Shown here one piece after another: positions 1,578 through 38,281 of a stretch of 64,000 bases of DNA. The notes beneath the pieces are model-generated. The model was given only the letters and a program-made list of their open reading frames with translations, had not been told where the DNA came from and ran no database searches. A program made the position numbers and the translations under genes. Origin of the DNA: a virus (taxonomy: Duplodnaviria; Caudoviricetes); the IMG/VR virus record IMGVR_UViG_3300037067_021792. One strand, 5' to 3'. The stretch's first letter is position 1; every line of letters begins with the position of its first letter.

Positions 1578-3238
1578 TGCAAAGAGTATCTGATTATATT
1601 GCTCAATTTTTAGTTAAAAATGGAATTAGTGATGTTTTTATGCTCACAGGATATGGGGCAATGTATATGAATGATGCTATTGAGATTGCTGGTATTAAAC
1701 ACTTTGCATGTAGAAATGAGGCTGCGGCTCCAATGATGGCAGAATCATATGCTCGCGTTAAGCAGTCTCTTGGGGTTGTTTGTGTTACCGCTGGGCCGGG
1801 ATCGACGAACGCAATCCCTGGGCTAGCCGAGGCGTGGGTAGACTCTGCCCCTATACTGGTGTTGTCCGGGCAAGTGGAAAGGCAACATACAACGCGCGCA
1901 GCCCATCTTCCTAAGTTCAGAACATTTGGAACCGCAGAGATAGACATAGTTCCCGTCGTCGAATCTTTAACTAAATTTTCTATAGAGGTAGATGATCCTT
2001 CAAAAATCCGATATTACCTTGAAAAATCTCTTTATTATGCTATCTCTGGTCGCCCTGGGCCCGTCTGGATGAGTATACCAATTGATGTTCAGAGCGCTAT
2101 GATTGATGAGAATTTATTGGAGGGATTCATTCCCAGTGTCGAAGAAACACCCATTCCCAATGACATTTATTCTGTAATTCAAATGTTATTGAACGCAAAA
2201 AGGCCCGTTATTATTTGCGGGAATGGAGTGAGACAGTCTTCTACTATACTTCAAGTTAAAGAATTGATAAATACATTGAAACTCCCCGTAGTCTTGTCAA
2301 GACTTGGTCAGGATATTTTCCCCCATTCTTCTCAGTATATAATGGGGCATGGTGGTGTTAAGGGGTCCACATCCTGCAAAAAAATAATGCAAGAAGCCGA
2401 TTTTGTATTGTCTCTTGGATGTAGGTTGGCAATCCAGTTTGTCGGCATGAAGCTTCAGCACTTCTCTCCAGATTGTAAGATTGTAATGGTTGATATTGAT
2501 GAGAATGAAACGAAGAAGCCTGGAGTGAAACTATCTGCTGCTATAAATTTAGATTTAAAGGAGTTTGTTCCGGAAATTATATCTCGTTTAAATGTTGGCT
2601 TACCAGATTGGTCTCATTGGGTGGAGCATTGCCAACATCTGAAGGAGCAATTTTTCTTTCCTACACGAGAAGGCAATCCCATTGATTTATACTATTTTAT
2701 GTCAAGATTAAATTTTCTTTCTGGCAAGAGACATATATTCACGACTGACGCTGGGTCAAATTATTACGTAGGTGGTCAAGTATTTACTTTTGATAAAGAA
2801 CAAAGGGAGATAACGTCGGGGGCATTTGCTGCAATGGGAACTAGCATTCCTTTGGCGATTGGTGCTGCTGTGGCAGACCCATCAAAGCAAATACTCGCGA
2901 TAACCGGAGATGGGTCCCTTGAGTTAAACATACAAGAGTTAAAAACTATTTCACATTATGGGTTTAACATTAAATTGTTTGTAATTAATAATGGTGGATA
3001 TGTTTCAATGAAAAAGTGGCAAGATACATATTTTGATGGTCGCAGGATAGACGACGCTGAGAAAACCGGTGTTGGAACTTTGAATCTAAAGAAAGTTGCA
3101 GAAGCCTTTGATATGGATTATGCCTTGATTAACGATTTCTCTATGGTGGATGATAGTATAATATCTTTGTTGTCTAATGATAAGCCCGTTTTTGTGGAAG
3201 TAATTACTGACAATCATCAAAAAATAATTGATGCATGA
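1577..3238 (+). CDS. Acetolactate-synthase-like ThDP enzyme (YerE-like carboligase in sugar context)
   Basis: RNEAAA, TAGPGSTN, GRPGPVW, GDGS...NNGGY. Confidence 0.85.
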   Translation: MQRVSDYIAQFLVKNGISDVFMLTGYGAMYMNDAIEIAGIKHFACRNEAAAPMMAESYARVKQSLGVVCVTAGPGSTNAIPGLAEAWVDSAPILVLSGQVERQHTTRAAHLPKFRTFGTAEIDIVPVVESLTKFSIEVDDPSKIRYYLEKSLYYAISGRPGPVWMSIPIDVQSAMIDENLLEGFIPSVEETPIPNDIYSVIQMLLNAKRPVIICGNGVRQSSTILQVKELINTLKLPVVLSRLGQDIFPHSSQYIMGHGGVKGSTSCKKIMQEADFVLSLGCRLAIQFVGMKLQHFSPDCKIVMVDIDENETKKPGVKLSAAINLDLKEFVPEIISRLNVGLPDWSHWVEHCQHLKEQFFFPTREGNPIDLYYFMSRLNFLSGKRHIFTTDAGSNYYVGGQVFTFDKEQREITSGAFAAMGTSIPLAIGAAVADPSKQILAITGDGSLELNIQELKTISHYGFNIKLFVINNGGYVSMKKWQDTYFDGRRIDDAEKTGVGTLNLKKVAEAFDMDYALINDFSMVDDSIISLLSNDKPVFVEVITDNHQKIIDA

Positions 3239-4969: not shown

Positions 4970-5979
4970 GAACATCGTTGTTTCAAAACAATTCAGATTG
5001 TGATATAATTCGATATGCCATAGATCTCGGGGTATCCGTGGTTGATACTGCGGAAAATTATGGGATGTCAGAAAAAATTGTTGCCAACGCGATTAGGGAC
5101 ATACGAGATCGGATAGCTATATCTACGAAATTTTCTCCAGAAAACAGTAAGTACAATGATGTTATCAAAGCGGCTCACCGTAGTTTAAAAAATTTACAAA
5201 CAGATAGTATCGATATTTATTATGTACATTGGCCTCGATACGATATAGATTTTTCTGAAACATACAAGGCTCTGTCTGATTTAAAAGAGAGTGGAAAGAT
5301 AAAACAAATAGGGCTGTGCAACGTAAACCGCTACGACTTGTCCTTGTTTTTGGATATTGGCCCAATTGACTGTATACAAATGGAATATAATCTGTTCGAC
5401 AGGTGGGCTTCGCCGGTTTTATTTCACGGATCCATTGCAAATAAATTTTGCTATAGTTCTTTAGACCAGGGGATTATATGCGATTCTAAAAACAAGGAGC
5501 TAAATTGTCTGGCAGAAAAATACAACGTTAGTGTTCCGGCTGTCGTATTGTCATGGGAAATGTCTAAGAACCTGATTCCAATATTTGCATCAAAGAATTC
5601 CGAACATATAAAAGACAACATTTCTTCTCTTAGCGTTACCTTATCTGATACTGATGTGGAATTTCTTGATAGAATTGGAAGTGCTGAGGTAATGGTTAAT
5701 ATCCGAGATATCATTCCGGCTGATGGTGGTCATCGTAACAGGAAAACCTATAAAACGGTAGATGAGGCAATTAAAAATCACCTAAATTACTATCCAAGCC
5801 CAATGGAAATGTCAAAGAGATTGCAAAAATGTAGAGATATTAAACCCATCAAATTATCTAGAAACAACGACGGGTCTTATACACTTATTGAGGGAAGAGT
5901 TAGGTATTGGGCATGGAGATTGGCATTTGGGGATGACTGCACAATTCCATCTTTGATTAGACAAGGAACAATTAGTTGA
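4948..5979 (+). CDS. Aldo/keto reductase with C-terminal ParB-like segment
   Basis: DTAENYG, ISTK, IDIYYVHWP, QMEYNLF; C-terminal PIKL...YTLIEGRVRYWA. Confidence 0.8.
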   Translation: MSKKIAIGTSLFQNNSDCDIIRYAIDLGVSVVDTAENYGMSEKIVANAIRDIRDRIAISTKFSPENSKYNDVIKAAHRSLKNLQTDSIDIYYVHWPRYDIDFSETYKALSDLKESGKIKQIGLCNVNRYDLSLFLDIGPIDCIQMEYNLFDRWASPVLFHGSIANKFCYSSLDQGIICDSKNKELNCLAEKYNVSVPAVVLSWEMSKNLIPIFASKNSEHIKDNISSLSVTLSDTDVEFLDRIGSAEVMVNIRDIIPADGGHRNRKTYKTVDEAIKNHLNYYPSPMEMSKRLQKCRDIKPIKLSRNNDGSYTLIEGRVRYWAWRLAFGDDCTIPSLIRQGTIS

Positions 5980-6890
5980 TATTGGAATTAGAAGATATAG
6001 CAGATTCATTTGGCACTAGCATATATGATTTTGATGACGAATTTATATCCCTATACAATTCGCACAATTGGTCATACAATGTTGCCACTGGTGCCGACAG
6101 AGATAAACTAATTATCGAAGTTTTAGAATTTTTAAAACAAGATGTTCAAAAAACTGGAGATAATAATAGAATCACTAGATGGGAAAATGGGTGGAGAGAA
6201 AATTTAGAAGCGTATAAGAGAACTAGAGATGTGAAGAATATTATTCCAAAGTTTATCAGACCCAAACAGCCAATAAGGTTAAAAGGGGAATTTGTATTTA
6301 CTGAGGATCCTAATTTTGAATTGAATTATGTAAGATTAATACAGAAGTGGATTTTCCATAAGTATATGGGCGATTGCACATCTATTCATGAATTTGGTTG
6401 TGGAAGTGGTATTAACATATCTTTTCTTTCTGAAATATTTCCCCAAAAAAAATTATTTGGGTATGATTTTGTGCAATCATCTATTGACATAATCAATATG
6501 CTGTCAGATACGAATCCAAATATTAAAGGATTCATATTTGATATGACACGTCCATCTTCTATTTCTGTGGATGACAATTCCTGTGTTTTTACATTTTGTT
6601 CTATAGAACAATTATCAAACAGTTTTCGAAATTTTATTAATTTTGTATTGGAGAGCAATCCAAAATTATGTGTGCATATCGAGCCAATTGTCGAACTATA
6701 TAATCCAACTAGCATAATAGATTACACTGCAATATGTTTTCATAAACAAAGAGACTATGTGTCTGGATTATTGCCATATCTACAAGATTTATGTCGGAAT
6801 AATAAAATTGAATTGACAAAAGTTCATAGAATGCAATTTGGGAGTCTGAGGTCGGAAGGATATATGCAACTAATTTGGAGACCAAAATGA
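5976..6890 (+). CDS. Class I SAM-dependent methyltransferase
   Basis: IHEFGCGSG motif I, GYD motif II. Confidence 0.75.
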   Translation: MILELEDIADSFGTSIYDFDDEFISLYNSHNWSYNVATGADRDKLIIEVLEFLKQDVQKTGDNNRITRWENGWRENLEAYKRTRDVKNIIPKFIRPKQPIRLKGEFVFTEDPNFELNYVRLIQKWIFHKYMGDCTSIHEFGCGSGINISFLSEIFPQKKLFGYDFVQSSIDIINMLSDTNPNIKGFIFDMTRPSSISVDDNSCVFTFCSIEQLSNSFRNFINFVLESNPKLCVHIEPIVELYNPTSIIDYTAICFHKQRDYVSGLLPYLQDLCRNNKIELTKVHRMQFGSLRSEGYMQLIWRPK

Positions 6891-7870
6891 TAAATATCGA
6901 TGTTTTGGATAGTTTTGCAGGGAAAACAGCACTGATTACTGGGGGAACGGGACTGATCGGAAGACAGATCACTCGCATACTTATTAATGCCGGTGCTATT
7001 GTCAGAATAGTGTCTCTTGACAAAAATAAAGTTCACGATAAGGCCGAACACATCGTCGGTGATTTATCGGATTTTAATTTTTGTAAATTGATTACTCGGG
7101 ATATTGATTTTGTATTTCATATTGCTGGTGTAAAAGGCTCAGTCAAAGTCACAAAAGAAAAACCAGCAAGTTTTTTTGTTCCTCTTCTTATGATGAACAC
7201 AAACATGCTTGAGTCGGCAAGAATTAATAATGTTAAGAAATTGGTGTATACTAGCTCGGTGGGGGCATATAGTAGCGCAGAAATTTTTGTGGAAGGCGAA
7301 AACGAAGATGGGCCACCGATGGATGAATTTCCTGGTTTGGCCAAACGAGTAGCAGAACAACAAATTCTTGCGTATAAAATTCAATATGGATTAGATAATT
7401 ACGCCATTGTAAGACCGGCCAATATTTATGGCCCTGGAGATAATTTTGATCCTGAAAATGCAATGGTAATTCCAACATTAATGCATCGCATTCTAAATAA
7501 GGAAGACCCCGTAATTATATGGGGAGATGGAAGTGCTATCAGAGATTTCGCATACAGTAAAGATGTAGCAGAGGGGATAGTGCTTGCTCTTTATTACGGA
7601 ACTCGCTCTAAATATGTTAATCTGGGAAGTGGTATTGGATACTCAATCAAAGAGCTAGTGGAGACTTTAAGAAGTTTTATTGATTTCAATTATGTATTTG
7701 ATTCCACAAAACCATCAGGTTTTCCGAAACGCATAATGAATATTAATTTAGCAAGAGCTACGCTGGGGTATAATCCCACAACTACTCTTAAAGAAGGACT
7801 GATGGAAACCTGGGATTGGTTTACCAATAATCCTACTGATTATTGTGATAAGAAGAATTATTTCAATTGA
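6875..7870 (+). CDS. NAD-dependent epimerase/dehydratase (GDP-fucose-synthase-like); start probably 6887
   Basis: TGGTGLIG, RPANIYGPGDNF, WGDGSAIRDF. Confidence 0.85.
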   Translation: METKMINIDVLDSFAGKTALITGGTGLIGRQITRILINAGAIVRIVSLDKNKVHDKAEHIVGDLSDFNFCKLITRDIDFVFHIAGVKGSVKVTKEKPASFFVPLLMMNTNMLESARINNVKKLVYTSSVGAYSSAEIFVEGENEDGPPMDEFPGLAKRVAEQQILAYKIQYGLDNYAIVRPANIYGPGDNFDPENAMVIPTLMHRILNKEDPVIIWGDGSAIRDFAYSKDVAEGIVLALYYGTRSKYVNLGSGIGYSIKELVETLRSFIDFNYVFDSTKPSGFPKRIMNINLARATLGYNPTTTLKEGLMETWDWFTNNPTDYCDKKNYFN

Positions 7871-9179
7871 CACTCCGCAGGGACTAAAGTCCCACAGATT
7901 CTCTAATCACTGAACATTCTTGCCCCGCCATTTCTAGCAAAGTAGAGGATTGTTCTCCTAGAGCGTTTATTCCCGCAAGCCCTACGGTATATCTATTTAA
8001 AATATTTTTGCTAGCATTTAAGTCTCTGTCTTCTACGTCCCCACAACAAGGGCATTTATGTATTCTAACACTTAAATCTTTCCTAACCATCGAACCACAA
8101 GAGCTACATAATTGGCTGGTATTCTTGGGATTAACTAGCTCCACTTTCCCACCGGCACTCTCAGCCTTGTAGGTAGTGTATTGAACTAATTTATTCCAAG
8201 AACAGTCACTTATGCTTTTAGCTAACTTATGGTTTTTAACCATATTAGAAACTGTTAAATCTTCAAAAACTATGGTTTCAAAGCTCTTTGCTAGACAAGA
8301 AGACGCTTTGTGTAAATAATCATCTCTTTGAAATCGTATTTTTCTGTGTAGACGTGCTACTTTGATTCGTTGCTTGTTCCTTCTGTTGCTAGTCTTTGTG
8401 GGTTTTCTTGAAAAAGTTCTCTGTGTTCTTGCGAGTGAATGTTCTGTTTTCTTTAAGAACTTAGGATTCTCTATAGTTTCTCCAGTAGATAAAGCACATA
8501 AAGTTTTAATCCCTACATCTATTCCTACAACAGAACCAGGATTAGAATGTATGATAAATTCTTGCTCTATATCACAAGCAAAGATAACGTACCAATGATC
8601 TACATCTCGTACCACTTGGCACGTTTTTATATCTCCTAAAATTGGCCTACTATAAACCATCTTAACACAACCAATTTTAGAAAGTTCTACTCTTTTATTA
8701 TTTGATGTAATTCTAAAGCCCAACTGAGGATAAGTAAAAGAACGATATCTATTAAAACTCTTAAAGCGTGGAAATCCTGCTTTTTTTGTTCCCTGTTTGC
8801 ATCGATCGAAAAATCTTTTATAAGATTTATCGAGCCTTTTAAGAACGTTTTGTAGCACCTGAGAATAAACTTGAGACTGGTAATGATTCTTATTTTTAGC
8901 TAAGTTGTTCGCCTGCTGGTTATAAGTTAAAGTTTTTTGAGTGTTTTGATAAGCCTCTTTTCTTTGTTCAAGTGCATCGTTATATGTGTGCCTACAAGTA
9001 TTTAGAGTGTTTATAAGTAGTTGCTCTTGTTTTCGAGTGGGATAAAGCCTGTATTTAAAAGATTTCATTGGCATTTCTATTGAATTATACAAGGAAATTG
9101 AGTATAATTCCTCGTAAGAAATTTAAAAGTTCGCTTATATCTACAGGGGTTAAAACCCCGTAGTTTTACGCTCAGGAGT
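7867..9179 (-). mobile_element. IS200/IS605-family tnpB-only (IS1341-like) element
   Basis: Left-end hairpin CTACGGGG-TTTT-AACCCCTGTAG near 9141-9163; right-end hairpin GGGAC-TTTA-GTCCC ending GTGTCAA at 7867; TTAT immediately 5' of the left end; no tnpA. Confidence 0.8.
7884..9092 (-). CDS. tnpB: RNA-guided endonuclease TnpB
   Basis: FKYRLYPT HTH, GIDVG / FEDL / DRDLNASKNI RuvC triad, CSSC..CPCC zinc finger. Confidence 0.93.
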   Translation of the reverse strand: MYNSIEMPMKSFKYRLYPTRKQEQLLINTLNTCRHTYNDALEQRKEAYQNTQKTLTYNQQANNLAKNKNHYQSQVYSQVLQNVLKRLDKSYKRFFDRCKQGTKKAGFPRFKSFNRYRSFTYPQLGFRITSNNKRVELSKIGCVKMVYSRPILGDIKTCQVVRDVDHWYVIFACDIEQEFIIHSNPGSVVGIDVGIKTLCALSTGETIENPKFLKKTEHSLARTQRTFSRKPTKTSNRRNKQRIKVARLHRKIRFQRDDYLHKASSCLAKSFETIVFEDLTVSNMVKNHKLAKSISDCSWNKLVQYTTYKAESAGGKVELVNPKNTSQLCSSCGSMVRKDLSVRIHKCPCCGDVEDRDLNASKNILNRYTVGLAGINALGEQSSTLLEMAGQECSVIRESVGL

Positions 9180-9884
9180 ATAAGGCATTATTCTGTCTGT
9201 TCTTCCGTTTTTTACTTCATTTAGATCACAATACTCTTTTACTATGCATTTAGGCCACAATGTCTGACACAAATCAAAGTCTTTTGAACTTTTTTGTGAT
9301 AATCTATTACGCTTATTGTCGAGATGTTCATATAGCCAGGCAGAACTTCTTATAACCGTTCCATTTTTATAAAATAGTCTGAGAGCAATATCGGCTTCCC
9401 ATCCGGTATTAATGAATCTGCGGTCAAATCCTCCCAGATTTATAAATAAAGTTTTAGTAATCATCATTGTGATGGGCATTATCCCAAAACCCGGAGGTGT
9501 TATGGGCATGAGGGGATTTGTGTCCTTTTTCTTATAATTCCCCGTTATTATGGTATGCTGTTCGTCTGATTCGAGCATGCTTTGTAACATTTTTTGTAAG
9601 AAATCTTCCTGCGGAACAAGGTCATCCACCATATGAATTACGTATTTACCTATAGTTTGAGAAAATGCCATATGGGCAGCTCTGGCTGGATTTGCATCGG
9701 TTCGTATAAATTTAAAGTTTGGAGGCAGAGATATTTGTGGAACAACGTGCCCTGCATATACTATTTCAAAGTCAATTTGGCTGTTTGACAGGGTTTTATA
9801 TGTGTTTTCCCAGTATTTTGTATATATTGCCGCGCTAAAAATACTAATTAATGGAACCATAAACAAGTAATTCTCTGTATTCAC
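9150..9884 (-). CDS. GT2-like glycosyltransferase; last 9 codons come from the IS left end
   Basis: HMVDDL, LGGFDRRF, EADIALR. Confidence 0.65.
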   Translation of the reverse strand: MNTENYLFMVPLISIFSAAIYTKYWENTYKTLSNSQIDFEIVYAGHVVPQISLPPNFKFIRTDANPARAAHMAFSQTIGKYVIHMVDDLVPQEDFLQKMLQSMLESDEQHTIITGNYKKKDTNPLMPITPPGFGIMPITMMITKTLFINLGGFDRRFINTGWEADIALRLFYKNGTVIRSSAWLYEHLDNKRNRLSQKSSKDFDLCQTLWPKCIVKEYCDLNEVKNGRTDRIMPYTPERKTTGF

Positions 9885-9902
9885 TGAGTTGTCCTCTGTC
9901 GT

Positions 9903-9911
9903 CGGTATAAT
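9903..9911 (+). promoter_or_regulatory. CGGTATAAT -10-type promoter
   Basis: Same 9-mer recurs in intergenic gaps at 19595 and 62203; AGGAG SD downstream. Confidence 0.5.
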
Positions 9912-9931
9912 ACTATAGTTTTAGGTTAGGA

Positions 9932-10435
9932 GTGCATATCATGAATATAAAAAAAACTGATTCTGGCCTTTTTGTTATTGAACCGCATGTTTTTGAGGAC
10001 TATCGGGGAGAATATATAGAAATATATAATGAAAATGAGTATCAAATTAATGGCATAGATGTGCATTTTGTACAAGATGACATATCTATTTCTGCTAAAC
10101 ATGTTTTAAAGGGTATACATGGAGATTCAAATACATGGAAGCTTGTGTCTTGTTTGAGTGGTAGAATATATTTAGTTGTAGTTAATTGCGATGTCGATTC
10201 TAAGGACTTTGGAAAATGGGATTCATTCATTATATCTGATAAAAACTACAGACAAGTACTTTTACCGCCGAAATTCGGAAACTCCATATTAACTTTAAGT
10301 GATATATCTGTTTTCCACTATAAACAATCTACGTATTATAATAAGAGCGGACAATTTACATATAAGTGGAATGATCCGAGGTTTGGCATAACTTGGCCAA
10401 TAGATAATCCTATTCTCTCAGAAAGGGACAGATGA
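9932..10435 (+). CDS. rmlC: dTDP-4-dehydrorhamnose 3,5-epimerase family
   Basis: FEDYRG, FVQDDIS, VLKGIHG, KWNDP..ITWP. Confidence 0.85.
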   Translation: MHIMNIKKTDSGLFVIEPHVFEDYRGEYIEIYNENEYQINGIDVHFVQDDISISAKHVLKGIHGDSNTWKLVSCLSGRIYLVVVNCDVDSKDFGKWDSFIISDKNYRQVLLPPKFGNSILTLSDISVFHYKQSTYYNKSGQFTYKWNDPRFGITWPIDNPILSERDR

Positions 10436-11289
10436 CATCTAATACCGGCACGGATCTCAGTTTGGTCTGTCCCACGGCAAGGTCTCGGGAAACTTGTATT
10501 GAAATGTGTAGCTCCATAAAAACAAATCTCAATATTGAAATAATTTTTGTTGGCCCGGTAAACATTTTTTCTGATGGATATAATAACATTCTTGTGGATA
10601 GTGCGGATATTCGAATTCCTTTCAAATTTATAACTACTTCAGTCAGTCCTGTTCAATGTTGGCAGATTGGGATGAATGCTGCGAAAGGTGAAACAGTAAG
10701 TATAACAGGTGATGATGCGACATTCTCTCCATATGCATGGGATAAATCTTATGCAATGTATAAAGATTCCAGTGACTATAAAACAATTGTTTCCCTGAGT
10801 TGGTTTCAACCTCATAAATACATTACGCTTGAAGAATATTCTCGCATCACTTTCATGGATACTCAATTAGAAAATATAGATTCTTCAATGTGGCAAAATT
10901 TTGATAGTAAAATGAAAGAATTTGGGATCCAACTGCCGACGGGATGTTCTGTTATGAGTAGAAAATTCTTTTGTGAGTTAGGAGGATATGATCGCAGATT
11001 TATTAAAAGAAACGCAGAGCGTGATTTATTTCTCAGAGCCATAAAAAATGGTGCAACTGTGAAATATTGTTTAGATGCTCGGGTTTTTGAATGGCGTTCG
11101 CATGTAATAATAAATCCAACTTATTCATCAAAAATTGCATCTCGGGAAGACTCTATGTTGTGCAAAAAGAAATGGAAGATGGAAGATGGGCGTCTTATCC
11201 AAATTATGGTCGATGAGCTGTTTGAATCCGATGAAACATTCCTTATTGTCTCGCAGGGAGCGAAAAATGAAAGTGCTATTGATAAATAA
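10432..11289 (+). CDS. GT2-like glycosyltransferase (paralog of 14335..15138)
   Basis: LSLVCPTAR, TGDD, LGGYDRRF. Confidence 0.65.
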   Translation: MTSNTGTDLSLVCPTARSRETCIEMCSSIKTNLNIEIIFVGPVNIFSDGYNNILVDSADIRIPFKFITTSVSPVQCWQIGMNAAKGETVSITGDDATFSPYAWDKSYAMYKDSSDYKTIVSLSWFQPHKYITLEEYSRITFMDTQLENIDSSMWQNFDSKMKEFGIQLPTGCSVMSRKFFCELGGYDRRFIKRNAERDLFLRAIKNGATVKYCLDARVFEWRSHVIINPTYSSKIASREDSMLCKKKWKMEDGRLIQIMVDELFESDETFLIVSQGAKNESAIDK

Positions 11290-12631
11290 TAAGATGAATC
11301 TTCCCGGGCAGCCCCTGGTTGCGCCGATAGGGTTGCTCTATTTGGTATCCACTCTTAAAAAGAACAATATCTGCGTAAAAATTTTGGATCACAATGTAGA
11401 GAATATTAGTGTTAAAGAATGTCTCATGGACTTTGTTCCGGACTTAGTTGGGATCGGATGTTGTTTTTCTGGGCATATAACCGAAACTCTTGATAACGCA
11501 AGACAAGTAAAAGCTTACGCTAATGTTCCGGTTGTTATTGGGGGAATACATCCCACAATATACTATAAAGATATTATGAAAAACTGTCCAGAAATAGACT
11601 ATATAATATTGGGCGAGGGAGAAATATCCCTGCTAAAGTTATGTAACTACATTCAAAAAAATGATATAAATATAATTCAACAAATAAATGGGATAGTATA
11701 TCGCGCACATAACAACGATGTGGTGGTAAATACTAAGACTAAATATATCGAAAACGTATCCGATCTTCCCTGGCCAGACTATAAGTGTATTAACATTAAA
11801 AATTACTACTATGATACGTCCAATTGGCACAATCCTAAAAGGTTAAACATAAACACATCTTTACCGATAATATCAAGCAGAAGCTGCCCAATGCAATGTA
11901 ATTTCTGCTCTATGTATATATTAATGGGTAAAAAAATTAGAAAAAGGAATCCATATGATGTTGTCAATGAAATAGAATATTTATACAATGAATATGATCA
12001 TAGATATTTTTCCTTTTACGATGATAATGTTAATTTGGACAGGAGACATATCCTTACTATTTGCTCAGAAATAAAGAAGCGAAAATTAAATATTCAGTTT
12101 GATACACCCAATGGAGTTCACGTTAATAGTCTTGATGAAGAAGTGGTTGAAGCTTTGGTTTCTAGTGGCCTTGTCAGAGTGTCGTTGGCAATAGAACATG
12201 GGTCTGAGTATATTAGAAACAAGATAATGGGGAAAAATTTGAGTACAGAAAAAATATACAGCGTAGTAAACATGTGTAAAAAATATCATGATTTATATAT
12301 CAGGACATTTTTTATTATGGGCATGCCAGAGGATACGCGTGAAACACTGCAAAAAACATATGAAATGATAGAAATAATGGATATCGATAAACCCATAGTA
12401 ACAAATGTGGTTCCATTTCCTGGCACTAAATTGTTTGATCAATGTATTAGAGATAATATTATTGTAGGTGTTAATGTTGAAGATCTCTGGAGAAATCCAG
12501 ATGCGTATTTCACTGGAAATAAACAATTCTTTGTGAAACCATATAACATGACTATGGAAGAACTAATATTTTTTAGAAATAAATTTGATTTGCTGATAAG
12601 CCAAAAATTAGACAGGAGCAGAAATTTATGA
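11267..12631 (+). CDS. B12-binding radical SAM protein
   Basis: PIGLLYL, GGIHPT, GEGE, SRSCPMQCNFC; start moved to MKVLLIN behind a GGAG SD. Confidence 0.9.
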   Translation: MKVLLINNKMNLPGQPLVAPIGLLYLVSTLKKNNICVKILDHNVENISVKECLMDFVPDLVGIGCCFSGHITETLDNARQVKAYANVPVVIGGIHPTIYYKDIMKNCPEIDYIILGEGEISLLKLCNYIQKNDINIIQQINGIVYRAHNNDVVVNTKTKYIENVSDLPWPDYKCINIKNYYYDTSNWHNPKRLNINTSLPIISSRSCPMQCNFCSMYILMGKKIRKRNPYDVVNEIEYLYNEYDHRYFSFYDDNVNLDRRHILTICSEIKKRKLNIQFDTPNGVHVNSLDEEVVEALVSSGLVRVSLAIEHGSEYIRNKIMGKNLSTEKIYSVVNMCKKYHDLYIRTFFIMGMPEDTRETLQKTYEMIEIMDIDKPIVTNVVPFPGTKLFDQCIRDNIIVGVNVEDLWRNPDAYFTGNKQFFVKPYNMTMEELIFFRNKFDLLISQKLDRSRNL

Positions 12632-30657: not shown

Positions 30658-31198
30658 AGAAATCTGGCAACAACTTGCCAATTATTTTCGAAGTAAGCTC
30701 GTAGCAAAAATTGATGTTGGGCAACTATTTGTGCACAATTCTATGCTACAACAGTCTCTTGAAATTCCGCACAAAGGTTTTTATGTTGGCGTGATCGACA
30801 GCGTGGGTAATCAGATTATTCGGGAAGGATTCTTATCAGAAAATTTGACCAATGTGATGAATAGCGCTGACATTGTTTTGGAAAATATTTATGGAAATTT
30901 AATTAACAACGGAGTTACTGTTTCCAAGCTTCAAACAAGTACTTTTTATTTCTACATCATAAATGATGTAGTCTATTTGGCAAATCCTATGGCATGGGAT
31001 GATAAACAGGATGGGGTTTATTTTCAGTGGGGCCAGAATTACAAGTCAATGTTTTTGCCGTATCAAGTTAAATTGATGAATATGCCCAAAACGGATATTT
31101 TGGACAGATTATGTGCTTCGTCTGGCACGGTATCTAATCTTTGGAAATTACCGGAGGGGTTAATATTTGCACTTAAAAATGAATCTCACAGCACATAG
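30641..31198 (+). CDS. AMMECR1-like protein (divergent)
   Basis: GFYV.., DGVY...SMFLPYQV, LDRLC pattern; LRGCIG motif absent. Confidence 0.5.
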   Translation: MNMISKEIWQQLANYFRSKLVAKIDVGQLFVHNSMLQQSLEIPHKGFYVGVIDSVGNQIIREGFLSENLTNVMNSADIVLENIYGNLINNGVTVSKLQTSTFYFYIINDVVYLANPMAWDDKQDGVYFQWGQNYKSMFLPYQVKLMNMPKTDILDRLCASSGTVSNLWKLPEGLIFALKNESHST

Positions 31199-31314
31199 GA
31201 ATACGGCCAATTTCCAAAGCATGGGCAGGTGAATTTCTTGAAGGATACACAAAAGGCTGGTTTGAAGCCGATGATGAGATTGGTTGAAATTCATGATATC
31301 TGAGGAGAATATGA

Positions 31315-31704
31315 GTGATAACAGTGACGAATCGAGCTGCTGATCAAATTAAGAAGATTATCAAAGATTCAGGATCGCAATGTTCCGTAGACTCCACTGG
31401 CGCTCCAGGTTCGCGGTATTATCTGAGTGTTGGCGTTAAGGCAGGTGGATGCTCCGGGTTTGAATATACAATAGATGTACAAGAACAATGTCCTGTCGAT
31501 TATATTAAAAATAATAGCGAAGGCATAGACATAATCTGTGATCCCAAAAGCTTTATTTATCTAGATGGGTGCCAAATCGATTTTGTTGAGAGTATGATGA
31601 AATCCGGTTTTGTATTTCTAAACCCTAATGCACAATACAATTGTGGATGTGGCAAAAGTTTCAGTGCTGCTTCCAGCTGTGGTGGGTGCCCAGAAAATTC
31701 TTAA
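31315..31704 (+). CDS. iscA: A-type Fe-S carrier (IscA/HesB family)
   Basis: GGCSGFEY, DPKS, NPNA..CGCGKSF. Confidence 0.92.
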   Translation: MITVTNRAADQIKKIIKDSGSQCSVDSTGAPGSRYYLSVGVKAGGCSGFEYTIDVQEQCPVDYIKNNSEGIDIICDPKSFIYLDGCQIDFVESMMKSGFVFLNPNAQYNCGCGKSFSAASSCGGCPENS

Positions 31705-31721
31705 AAATTTAGAGGGTTTTC

Positions 31722-31749
31722 TTGAAATCTGTAGAATATAGAGTATAAT
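31722..31749 (+). promoter_or_regulatory. Sigma70-type promoter of the ncRNA cluster
   Basis: TTGAAA-16nt-TATAAT; predicted start coincides with the first RNA stem. Confidence 0.7.
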
Positions 31750-31752
31750 AGT

Positions 31753-31849
31753 ATGCTCACAACCTAAAAGGTTGGATTACAAACTTGCGGAAGAGTGAAT
31801 TGAGTCCCGAATGTGGGCTCAAAAAGTCCAGTCGAACTTTTGTGAGTGT
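31753..31849 (+). ncRNA. Structured RNA A (CCUAA/UACAAAC module; Y-RNA-like)
   Basis: 10-bp closing stem, CCTAAAA/GAACTT internal loop, 9-bp second helix, internal hairpin. Confidence 0.7.
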
Positions 31850-31865
31850 TCTTTTAAAATTGAAT

Positions 31866-32000
31866 AAAAGTTGCGCCCTAATGGCTTGGCTTACAAACAA
31901 TTAGCTCATTGGTAGAGCGACACTCCTAATAAAGTGATGGTAGCAGGTTCAAATCCTGTATTGTTAAACAAAAACGGCCTCGTAAACTTGCGCAACTTTT
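31866..32000 (+). ncRNA. Structured RNA B: same module carrying a tRNA-like cloverleaf (31895-31966)
   Basis: Perfect 11-bp stem AAAAGTTGCGC/GCGCAACTTTT; D arm GCTC-ATTGGTA-GAGC; T arm GCAGG-TTCAAAT-CCTGT; no CCA. Confidence 0.8.
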
Positions 32001-32007
32001 TGTATTT

Positions 32008-32059
32008 GTTCGGGATCCGAAAGGATTTAATTTTGGGAGTCATCCCTTCCCGAGCACCA
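32008..32059 (+). ncRNA. Mini tRNA-like element ending in ACCA
   Basis: 7-bp stem GTTCGGG/CCCGAGC plus A-CCA; two small internal hairpins. Confidence 0.45.
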
Positions 32060-32060
32060 T

Positions 32061-32144
32061 GCGAGGGACGGTGAGATCTCGTCGGACGATGATGTCAAAG
32101 TTGTCTCTGTCGATGACACAAAGGTTCAACTCCTTTGCTTCGCG
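32061..32144 (+). ncRNA. Degenerate class II tRNA-like element
   Basis: Acceptor GCGAGG/CTTCGC, T arm AAAGG-TTCAACT-CCTTT, variable arm TGTC-GAT-GACA; 9-nt anticodon loop; no CCA. Confidence 0.55.
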
Positions 32145-32196
32145 TTAGTACTCGATGTGAGTACGGTTTTGAGTAGTAAGTAAAAGGGGAACAGTT

Positions 32197-32268
32197 ATGT
32201 TTTTTACATGGTTTTTTGAATTTATTTCGCTTGTTTCTCGGCTAGTTACCATCGGAGTCGAAGGGTAA
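32197..32268 (+). CDS. 23-aa Phe-rich peptide MFFTWFFEFISLVSRLVTIGVEG
   Basis: AAGGGGA SD 6 nt before ATG; stop lies inside hairpin 32230-32281. Confidence 0.35.
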   Translation: MFFTWFFEFISLVSRLVTIGVEG

Positions 32269-32291
32269 TTCCGAGAACAAGAATCTAGTAT

Positions 32292-32371
32292 AAAGCCGCA
32301 ACCTAAAGGGACGGACCTACAAACATTTTTCTTGACCAATGTTGAACTGTCCTCCGGACTATTGCGGCTTT
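32292..32371 (+). ncRNA. Structured RNA C (same module), followed by a U-run
   Basis: Perfect 10-bp stem AAAGCCGCAA/TTGCGGCTTT, CCTAAAG/GGACTA loop, TACAAAC. Confidence 0.7.
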
Positions 32372-32395
32372 TTTGTTTGAATCTGAAAGGAAATT

Positions 32396-32980
32396 GTGAT
32401 GGGGTCAATCAAGAAAAATCATATCATCGATCCAAATCAATCGGATAACACTCACGAAAAGCTACTTTCCAATTTTAAGTGGGATGAAATTGGGGAAGGC
32501 TCTGGCACAGAAATGGCAGAAAGTGGCGTAGCGAGATCTATTTCTGAGTGCGCTCAAAATCTATTCTCATCCTTATTGAGGGATATTAATATTTCGAATT
32601 ATGAGGGAGCAATGTTTGTGGTTCCTGTGAATGTTGATTCATCTGCGATACTGGCATCGTGTTTTAATGACGATTATAGTATTGAATCTCGGCTCGATGT
32701 TTTAAGTCTGATCTACGCCGCATTCCGCGGTATCGCCAACACGCCCGACACTTGCGCTGACATAAATCGCAAAATCGAGGAGATATTGCCAACCGAAGAT
32801 TCTAGATTTTATCGCGTGGCAGATTTTATCGATATTGCCGATAACCCAGAATGTCCTGTTGGGGTTAGCCTTGATTCTGGCGAGACATTCTCGACAGAAG
32901 ACAACTCGAAATCCGTTATAATCGAAGTTCATATCATTGAATGCTCGAAAGAGAATAATTCGCCAAATAGTGGTGATTGA
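32396..32980 (+). CDS. Hypothetical protein
   Basis: Intact 194-aa ORF with AAGGA SD. Confidence 0.6.
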   Translation: MMGSIKKNHIIDPNQSDNTHEKLLSNFKWDEIGEGSGTEMAESGVARSISECAQNLFSSLLRDINISNYEGAMFVVPVNVDSSAILASCFNDDYSIESRLDVLSLIYAAFRGIANTPDTCADINRKIEEILPTEDSRFYRVADFIDIADNPECPVGVSLDSGETFSTEDNSKSVIIEVHIIECSKENNSPNSGD

Positions 32981-33003
32981 TGATAATAGTGGTGATTGAT
33001 GAT
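32966..33003 (+). repeat. 19-bp perfect tandem duplication AATAGTGGTGATTGATGAT
   Basis: Copies at 32966-32984 and 32985-33003. Confidence 0.95.
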
Positions 33004-37340: not shown

Positions 37341-37440
37341 AGCTGATATACATGCTGATGCTGATTATGCTTTGAGACACGCTGCTGCTAATGGCCATCT
37401 AGATGTGGTTGAATACTTAAATACCTGCAATGCAAAATGA
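37334..37440 (+). pseudogene. Ankyrin-repeat gene remnant
   Basis: GADIHADADYALRHAAANGHLDVVEYL with no plausible start. Confidence 0.75.
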
Positions 37441-38281
37441 TTTATTTAAAAACATTGTTAAAATGGAGCGGGAATTTCGCACAAAAGAATTTCTCGCTCC
37501 TTATACCGAGGAATCTAAGATCGCCATTATTAAAATGGATGGTCTTAATTATAGATTTCACATCGGCGGGTTTTCTGGCTCGGGTATTGGAAAATTCATT
37601 CCGATATCTCCTACTTATGCTGAATATACAGGCGAAGCCGATCAATCTTTAGTTAGATCGTATTTTAACAGTCTTCTATCTCTTAGAGTTATTTTGTGCT
37701 ATGAAACGAATTTCGGGTGGGTTGCTTATCCCGCCAGCATTAATGTGGCACGAAATAAGTTTTCTCTAGATGGGGAACTTGTTGTTAAAAATGCTTTTGA
37801 CAATCGCTTTGACGTAGTATTGGCCAGATTCGACGGTTTGCATTTTTGGTCCGATGGCATCTGCCCAACAAATTCATTTAAATCTAAGTGTATGCGAGAT
37901 TGTTTTGTGCCCAAATACACTCCAGACCAAATGAGAGAAGCACTGAAGAAAATACCAAATATAACTCCGGAAGATAATTGTGCTTTTGAGTTGGCAATAT
38001 CATCAGCCGAAAATATTCTTAATGAATATCTTACTACAGGTGGTGGTTCGTTGACCTCGTATATAGTGCAAGGTCCTAATATAGAAATTAAGTGGAAATC
38101 GGCTGCTGGTAATAGCTATACTTCATTGGTGGATAAAGAATCGCTAGATGTTATTTCTACTGGTGTGTGTTTGACAAATGATACATTACATCTAAAAGAC
38201 CTACCATTTTTGGCTGAGTCTATCGAGAATTATCGAGTGCCAATACGTAATATAGATTTTAATGGTATTGAGGATTTTTGA
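37430..38281 (+). CDS. Conserved hypothetical protein, likely partner of the VWA gene
   Basis: EFLAPY, WVAYP, ARFDG..W, LDVISTGVCL motifs. Confidence 0.65.
   Translation: MQNDLFKNIVKMEREFRTKEFLAPYTEESKIAIIKMDGLNYRFHIGGFSGSGIGKFIPISPTYAEYTGEADQSLVRSYFNSLLSLRVILCYETNFGWVAYPASINVARNKFSLDGELVVKNAFDNRFDVVLARFDGLHFWSDGICPTNSFKSKCMRDCFVPKYTPDQMREALKKIPNITPEDNCAFELAISSAENILNEYLTTGGGSLTSYIVQGPNIEIKWKSAAGNSYTSLVDKESLDVISTGVCLTNDTLHLKDLPFLAESIENYRVPIRNIDFNGIEDF

Follow-up and report, generated by a model that had tools for sequence, protein, structure and literature searches.

A Family of Putative Y-RNA-like RNAs That Share a Covarying Handle and Accompany Genes for a Divergent Ro60-like Protein in Phages and Bacteria

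Results

Three RNAs with a common handle

The subject of this study is a 64,000-nucleotide (nt) stretch of virus DNA (Duplodnaviria; Caudoviricetes; IMG/VR record IMGVR_UViG_3300037067_021792), hereafter called the window, in which three putative RNAs with a common terminal structure, the handle, share a strand with a gene for a 597-amino acid (aa) protein resembling Ro60 and lie 2.6 kb upstream of it (Table 1). The contig of the window, a metagenomic assembly of ~270 kb with genes for ThyX, dCMP deaminase, and topoisomerase, most likely derives from a jumbo phage. The RNAs occupy the region 31700-32400 between the gene for an IscA-like protein and a 194-aa open reading frame (ORF; 32396-32980), where all genes are on the plus strand, and a blastn search of GenBank phages with the RNA region gave no match.

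Table 1. Positions of the RNAs, genes, and other features discussed in the text
Feature	Position	Strand	Size, content or basis
Handle RNA1	31753..31849	+	97 nt; payload, two hairpins
Handle RNA2	31866..32000	+	135 nt; payload, tRNA cloverleaf
Handle RNA3	32292..32371	+	80 nt; payload, single acceptor-stem-like hairpin (AACAUU...AAUGUU)
tRNA-like payload of RNA2	31895..31967	+	ARAGORN, Rfam tRNA
Sigma-70-type promoter-like site	31722..31749	+	TTGAAA-16 nt-TATAAT, consensus match only
Divergent Ro60/Rsr-like protein, 597 aa	34957..36750	+	AlphaFold (AF2) model, Foldseek, family profile
Conserved 283-aa protein, no known family	37430..38281	+	tblastn, predicted complex
IscA/HesB-type Fe-S assembly protein	31315-31704	+	Pfam Fe-S_biosyn

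Folding with RNAfold gave one architecture for all three RNAs: an outer stem (P1), a 7x6 internal loop, an inner helix (P2), the sequence UACAAAC, and a variable payload. P1 consists of 10, 11, and 10 base pairs (bp) in RNA1, RNA2, and RNA3, and the stem sequences are unrelated, which agrees with the initial annotation of the window, where closing stems of 10-11 bp with different sequences, a 7x6 internal loop, and a second helix had been described in each segment. In the internal loop, CCUAAWR faces RRACUW; the 7-nt 5' side reads CCUAAAA, CCUAAUG, and CCUAAAG and the 6-nt 3' side GAACUU, AAACUU, and GGACUA in RNA1, RNA2, and RNA3, respectively. P2 is 9 bp long in RNA1 and contains a bulged C in RNA3, whose fold has a z-score of -4.1. 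The near-identical motif that had been noticed after each 5' arm occurs three times in the window and was found in none of 100 shuffles. A U-run at the 3' end of every RNA had also been proposed, and this holds only in part: the run behind RNA3 (UUUUUUGUUUG, 32372-32381) is clear and the sole convincing one of the three, that behind RNA1 is modest (UCUUUU), and the Us of RNA2 mostly lie within its stem. The promoter-like site, which had been placed directly 5' of RNA1, matches the consensus at 11 of 12 positions and ends four bases before the RNA.

A covarying RNA family outside known Rfam families

Relatives of the RNAs were searched for in a viral set, comprising 61 loci that encode relatives of the Ro60-like protein and five metagenomic contigs of close relatives, and in a bacterial set, for which one genome per prokaryotic species was scanned and 80 of the 412 loci obtained were kept for the RNA search. 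A simple descriptor already located handles in the non-coding gaps of close relatives. Two covariance models were then used, R1 built from 11 short handle members (alignment A2) and R2 from 17 phage and bacterial members without any window sequence (alignment A6); RNA2 is absent from both seed alignments. R1 found exactly three matches in the window, RNA1 with 61.1, RNA2 with 49.5, and RNA3 with 71.4 bits. R2 likewise recovered RNA3 (49.7 bits, E 1e-11), RNA1 (47.4 bits, E 5e-11), and RNA2 (43.7 bits, E 6e-10), with no further match up to E<=10 in the 64 kb. When viral contigs were scanned for exact copies of the motif from the window, 87 single matches were obtained, which were judged to be chance ones given a 15-base pattern and the large amount of sequence, and none of them was used.

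In total, the handle family comprises more than 300 covarying members from phage and bacterial loci, and their payloads vary freely, so the constant handle with interchangeable interiors suggested by the initial annotation is a general property of the family. Rfam 15 holds no family for the handle, and full-text literature searches found no description of it. A gathering-threshold Rfam scan of the window and seven related loci gave tRNA and no match to the Y_RNA or YrlA models.

Base-pairing was examined at 18 modeled pairs in 104 members, which come from phages and from no fewer than six bacterial phyla. Standard pairs fill 90.1% of the cells, versus 63.9% with shuffled partners and 33-48% with slid partners; fitting of the alignment to the model favors the structure, but the margins are large. 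Compensatory changes occur at all 18 pairs, in both helices, and the same picture was obtained with 66 members. The consensus can be written as P1 (..CCGYRC) - CCYAMNN - P2 (NNNNRGC) N - UACAWAC - payload - N (GCYNNNN) - NRACUU - P1' (GYRCGG..), where UACA, AC, and ACU are near-invariant across phyla, each being present in 101-104 of the 104 members. Invariant unpaired nucleotides between freely varying helices are what the trace of a sequence-specific protein contact would be expected to look like. An origin from DNA repeats such as miniature inverted-repeat transposable elements was rejected because the stems differ in sequence and covary. Inspection of the internal loop for cross-strand pairing or a k-turn revealed no consistent canonical scheme.

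The 597-aa protein as a distant member of the Ro60 fold

Single-sequence searches with the 597-aa ORF gave weak hints only, namely Pfam vWA_Ro60 (E 9e-4), Ro60 in the PDB (E 0.02), and a PHROG annotated as 'RNA-binding protein' (E 8e-7), and the NCBIfam Rsr model reached E 0.12. Alignment A1 of 30 homologs was used for both an AlphaFold model and a family profile. The model, with a predicted local distance difference test score (pLDDT) of 84, consists of a helical TROVE-like ring, into which beta strands are inserted at about residues 101-182, and a C-terminal vWA domain. The top 12 Foldseek matches in the PDB are all Ro60/Rsr/TROVE chains, including Ro60 of Thermus phage phiLo, with ~600 aligned columns, E values from 1.4e-11 to 8e-8, and target-normalized template modeling (TM) scores of 0.57-0.67, and the matches that follow are isolated vWA domains. 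The model also matched an Atlas TROVE cluster with TM scores of 0.61/0.69. Identity to solved Ro60s is ~13%. The A1 profile matched Deinococcus radiodurans Rsr (2nvo) over residues 268-532 (E 2.3e-6) as well as phiLo Ro60 (E 6.5e-6), and the match extended back into the helical region. The predicted structure and the profile thus identify the family as a distant branch of the Ro60 fold. A hidden Markov model (HMM) of DUF2828 matched none of the 30 family members and nothing at the L200, L205, and L174 loci.

The 412 bacterial loci with the protein include those of Nostoc, Tolypothrix, Moorena, Planctomycetota, Tepidisphaeraceae, Armatimonadota, Chloroflexota, and Chlorobiota. The beta-strand insertion is typical of a phage subfamily of ~590-620 aa; the bacterial and other phage homologs are ~100 aa shorter (465-530 aa), which fits the absence of the insertion. 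In one cyanobacterium, a DUF2828 gene and a Ro60-like gene are both present, at separate places.

Linkage of the handle RNAs to the Ro60-like gene

The initial annotation had compared the architecture of the three RNAs with that of Y RNAs, and the structurally clear Ro60/Rsr homolog encoded downstream of them, to which the family is tied, supports this comparison. In 917 kb of phage and metagenome loci, R1 gave 60 matches at E<0.01, 59 of which are upstream of the Ro60-like gene and on its strand, while ~35 loci carrying only vWA relatives yielded no handle. In the 80 bacterial loci, R1 gave 296 matches at E<=1, of which 290 have the orientation of the gene, mostly within 3 kb upstream, and the loci that lack a match mostly retain almost no upstream sequence. 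The same-strand, near-gene layout holds in ~95 related loci. Close relatives of the phage also preserve the gene order, with an IscA-like gene, a non-coding gap of 0.7-1.8 kb, ORFs of ~190/310/325 aa, the Ro60-like gene, and ORFs of ~115/300 aa.

Such a position raises the possibility that the RNAs are cis-acting leaders, attenuators, or terminators of the downstream operon rather than stable trans-acting RNAs. They are upstream of conserved genes on the same strand, RNA3 ends in a stem with a U-run, and in bacteria the last handle copy ends ~90 nt before the start codon, all of which a leader would explain. However, a locus contains three to ten divergent copies, in arrays that reach about ten, each with its own covarying stems and tRNA-like payload; in Tolypothrix tenuis PCC 7101 (L200), where the motif takes the cyanobacterial form UACAUAC, the copies are interleaved with several genes; and a few handles follow the gene or are encoded on the other strand (L163, L178, and L103). 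We consequently regard a role as cis-acting elements as very improbable.

Payloads and their relation to tRNA

The cloverleaf that the initial annotation had recognized among the unrelated interiors is called within RNA2 by both ARAGORN and Rfam, as an abnormal tRNA. It scores 48.2 bits against the Rfam tRNA model, which places an inserted base in the anticodon loop; ARAGORN reports 'tRNA-???' and cannot name the anticodon. The D arm and the T arm are canonical, 8 nt (CCUAAUAA) make up the anticodon loop, ACA stands where CCA is expected, and the acceptor stem AACAAU/AUUGUU is formed out of the conserved UACAAAC motif. In the phage set, ~22 members of 125-150 nt enclose a cloverleaf that ARAGORN can name, with anticodons for Lys, Ile, Gly, Leu, Glu, Thr, Arg, UCA, Asn, Ser, Trp, and Gln. 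The tRNA-like payloads carry at least 14 different anticodons on one conserved body. Alignment of 22 homologous payloads defined this body as a D arm AGCUCA-UUGGUAGAGC, a T arm GGUUCAAnUCC, and an acceptor stem AAACAAU/AUUGUU; the anticodon arm alone changes, and many payloads have an encoded NCCA. Short members such as RNA3 contain an acceptor-like hairpin only. The RNA interiors are thus interchangeable.

The handle might then be a processing or storage cage for real tRNAs, from which RNase P and 3' trimming release phage tRNAs, the short members being decayed copies. Many payloads are indeed complete cloverleaves with 7-nt anticodon loops and NCCA right after the acceptor stem, the arrays adjoin ordinary tRNA gene clusters in several phages, and YrlA of Mycobacterium smegmatis, itself a Y RNA, is cut by RNase P (PMC4201824). 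On the other hand, a single A/U-rich acceptor stem serves all payloads regardless of anticodon, the 'Leu' and 'Ser' versions lack a long variable arm, the copy in the window has the 8-nt loop and no CCA, and more than one-third of the members have no tRNA body at all. In addition, cyanobacteria and planctomycetes commonly carry the family and have no need of extra tRNAs, and a cage would account neither for the invariance of the loop nucleotides nor for the linkage to a single protein family. Such a cage is, in our judgment, quite unlikely. Because of the missing variable arms of the Leu and Ser versions and the 8-nt loop and ACA end of the window copy, the tRNA-like payloads appear instead to be mimics derived from tRNA and built on one shared framework, rather than an ordinary set of tRNAs.

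A payload of a different kind was found at L163, in a metagenome-assembled genome of Armatimonadota, where positions 7490-7700 encode a handle RNA of ~210 nt with P1 GGCUCGUGC/GCACGAGCC, UACAAAC, and GACUU. Its payload is aligned by Rfam to positions 1077-1160 of the 23S rRNA model with 54 bits, a segment that, in terms of the Escherichia coli sequence, we take to be the L11-binding GTPase-associated center.

A conserved 283-aa partner and the wider cassette

A gene for a 283-aa protein accompanies the Ro60-like gene, as judged from tblastn, at 23 phage and metagenome loci and at 48 of the 80 bacterial loci. The protein had no match in Pfam, NCBIfam, PHROGs, or PDB sequences and nothing usable in the Atlas, and its fold gave only weak, OB-fold-like rows (Foldseek E >= 5e-3; VIA Z <= 5.5). 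A complex predicted for the ring and the 283-aa protein scored 0.61, versus 0.00 for the best control; the mark adopted for this score is reached by 58 of 80 solved complexes and by 2 of 110 mismatched pairs. The runs share at least 67% of the contacts with a pLDDT of at least 78 for the partner, and the predicted interface joins residues 267-331 of the ring to residues 2-14, 35-42, and 61-62 of the partner. The predicted complex supports binding of the 283-aa protein to the ring.

A gene for a ThiF-like E1 protein, which is absent across the window, occurs a few kb downstream of the Ro60-like gene in most relatives, at 30 phage and metagenome loci (L151-L156 and L088 among them) and at 47 of the 80 bacterial loci. 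At L200 (positions 5400-12200), a 69-aa ORF, a 242-aa ORF, and what we read as a paralog of bL12 (L7/L12) lie interspersed among the handle RNAs, and the Ro60-like gene, a 283-aa homolog, a 277-aa ORF, and ThiF follow 3' of the array. The 69-aa ORF ends in ...AVYG, with a terminal Gly, and is possibly ubiquitin-like.

These neighbors bear on a further explanation, in which the RNAs work by themselves, independently of the Ro60-like protein, to decoy or bait toxins that target RNA (anticodon nucleases or ribotoxins, for example), and the handle either stabilizes them or binds another neighbor, for example, the 283-aa OB-like protein. Fast change of the anticodon loops on a constant body, the bacterial payload that mimics the 23S GTPase-associated center, and the conserved 283-aa gene would all suit such a function. 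However, no other gene accompanies the handle as consistently as the ring gene, which is present at all bacterial loci, though this is so by construction, compared with the incomplete occurrence of the 283-aa and ThiF genes given above, and the window keeps the RNAs and the ring gene without ThiF. A role as decoys also overlaps with docking on the Ro60-like protein, because display of baits on its ring would be compatible with both. Decoys that work without the ring seem to us rather unlikely.

Other elements of the array region

The IscA/HesB-type gene is immediately 5' of the RNA array, not only in the window but also at three loci of close relatives (L154, L155, and L156). Between RNA2 and RNA3, the window contains a 54-nt structure (32007-32060), in which a stem of 8-9 bp encloses two small hairpins and is directly followed by GCACCA; it resembles a tRNA minihelix with an encoded CCA end, and similar CCA-ending hairpins occupy the same position at L088 (3915-4030). 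The adjoining tRNA-like element (32061-32143), called by neither ARAGORN nor Rfam, has an acceptor-like stem GCGAGG/CUUCGC, a T arm AAAGGUUCAACUCCUUU, a long irregular interior, and a fold z-score of only -1.45, and a 7-bp hairpin with a U-run lies 3' of it at 32148-32164. A 16-codon ORF that starts with ATG at 32198, within 32198-32281, and has a good ribosome-binding site (AAAGGGG) overlaps a strong hairpin at 32230-32281 (CUUGUUUCUCGG...CCGAGAACAAG) just 5' of RNA3. In a related phage (L095, positions 1917-3107), two group I introns are found among ordinary tRNA genes beside a handle-RNA array.

Discussion

The RNA family, its covariation, its linkage to one gene, and the fold of the encoded protein are directly supported by the analyses described above. 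From these we consider it fairly likely that the RNAs of the window are partners of the 597-aa Ro60-like protein and that the handle is their docking site. Our reasons, which include an analogy with Y RNAs, are that the independent model R2 recovers the window RNAs, that the family is linked to the gene and covaries around invariant loops, that the fold and the profile of the protein are those of Ro60, and that the layout is Y-RNA-like with modular payloads. tRNA precursors, ring-independent decoys, and cis-acting leaders are each less likely than docking on the ring. The handle RNAs as a whole probably form a hitherto undescribed class of partner RNAs, similar to Y RNAs and displaying look-alikes of tRNA, and the system would amount to a new form of the Ro60/Y-RNA particle, with its own RNA class and with a protein outside the TROVE model.

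Several observations weigh against this docking. Three ORFs stand between the window RNAs and the Ro60-like gene, and no handle was found within 8 kb in 10 of the 24 searched phage loci with a full-length homolog. The Pfam TROVE model (PF05731) matched none of the 30 family members, and the Rfam Y_RNA and YrlA models were unmatched at E<=10 in a cmscan of 31000-33000, which gave only tRNA and chance snoRNA matches. Moreover, in contrast to YrlA and the Yrl RNAs of phiLo, the handle lacks the GNCGAAN0-1G/CGAA motif, which is thought to contact Ro60; the initial annotation had already remarked that the loop is not that of YrlA, and the family consensus at this place is CCYAMNN. The sole GUCGAAC in the window RNAs is on the 3' side of RNA1 and is not conserved. 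Finally, one of the other conserved neighbors, namely the 283-aa OB-like protein, the ThiF-like E1, or the cyanobacterial bL12-like paralog, could be the true binder of the handle.

If the handle RNAs are nevertheless partners of the Ro60-like protein, the handle would dock on the ring as the terminal stem of a Y RNA docks on Ro60 and would display the variable inner part. RNA2, which presents a cloverleaf via its acceptor stem, might then be the analog of YrlA, and RNA3, with its acceptor-like minihelix, and RNA1, with its two hairpins, might be analogs of YrlB. We infer that the RNAs are made as discrete transcripts, bind the protein, and serve in a particle, that is, a phage-made ribonucleoprotein in which the RNA either gates the ring or tethers the ring and its bound 283-aa partner to a target. 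The targets of such a tether might be tRNA-recognizing factors or damaged translation RNAs, the payload acting as a mimic to tether, gate, or bait. A broader and more doubtful possibility, which we put forward tentatively, is that a third branch of the Ro60/Y-RNA world exists in jumbo phages, cyanobacteria, planctomycetes, and other phyla. In this branch, a universal handle would show translation-RNA mimics on a ring with a bound partner, among them entire tRNAs whose anticodons can be exchanged, minihelices of the acceptor type, and, at one locus, the L11-binding center of 23S rRNA; the assembly might be a bait, a decoy, or a repair platform against RNA-damaging attack and, in bacteria, might be wired to a ubiquitin-like/E1 module.

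The findings are relevant to the function of the bacterial and phage Ro60 particle, a field in which the known Y RNAs were found via similarity to one motif. A Ro60-fold protein invisible to the TROVE model appears to have its own, equally modular RNA class at more than 400 bacterial loci and in many giant phages, and the loci include those of culturable Nostoc and Tolypothrix strains amenable to genetics. The tRNA copies with many anticodons, together with one ribosomal RNA center, point to translation RNAs as the business end of the system.

Relationship to known RNA families

Two other groups of RNAs closed by a terminal stem resemble the handle RNAs in part. The dictyostelid Class I RNAs (Kjellin et al. 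2021, PMC7919456) similarly have a short covarying end stem, a conserved motif just 3' of the 5' arm, and a variable remainder. Of their near-invariant positions T3, C6, C9, A10, and A11, however, only T3, C6, and A11 fit the handle (CUUACAAACA). Class I RNAs are eukaryotic, measure 42-65 nt, and are not known to have a Ro60-like partner; we regard this as a resemblance only. The ACAGCAA-type handle (UACAGCAA) and UACAAAC both start with UACA, whereas the motif-bearing stem, P2 in the present family, is here enclosed by an extra conserved internal loop and the outer stem P1. ACAGCAA-type handles were also considered as members of UACAAAC arrays and rejected: the occurrences read upstream of the gene are mostly coding, and an example from Nostoc did not fold as a handle. 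Near a Chroococcus DUF2828 gene located elsewhere in the genome, neither the ACAGCAA nor the UACAAAC motif was found.

The closest parallels are the Y RNAs of bacteria and phages. In more than 250 bacteria and phages, YrlA RNAs share a strand with the Ro60 gene and are encoded within 4 kb of it (Chen et al. 2014, PMC4201824); they combine a tRNA-like domain with the GNCGAAN0-1G motif, and a species has one such RNA plus shorter Y RNAs (PMC4201824). Ro60 of Thermus phage phiLo binds two upstream Y-like RNAs, Yrl1 and Yrl2, which were identified by the CGAA motif (PMC12135203), and TROVE proteins are known occasionally in jumbo phages. The present system differs from these in that the invariant nucleotides of the handle are CCYA, UACAWAC, and ACUU, that the handle arrays reach about ten copies, and that the 597-aa protein, unlike known Ro60s, is missed by the TROVE HMM. 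The tRNA-like parts also differ in topology, since the complete cloverleaf of RNA2 is attached via its acceptor stem, whereas in YrlA, as described, a stem-loop between the T and D arms occupies the acceptor position and the long stem enters elsewhere (PMC4201824). In other respects the agreement is close: as in YrlA, YrlB, and the Yrl RNAs of phiLo, the 5' and 3' ends of the handle RNAs pair into a stem with an internal loop; as at YrlA loci, the RNAs of the window lie within ~4 kb of a gene for a Ro60 fold, with a helical ring and a vWA domain, on the same strand; and, as at YrlA/YrlB loci, there are several RNAs, one with a tRNA-like domain and the others shorter, an arrangement that also occurs in large phages.

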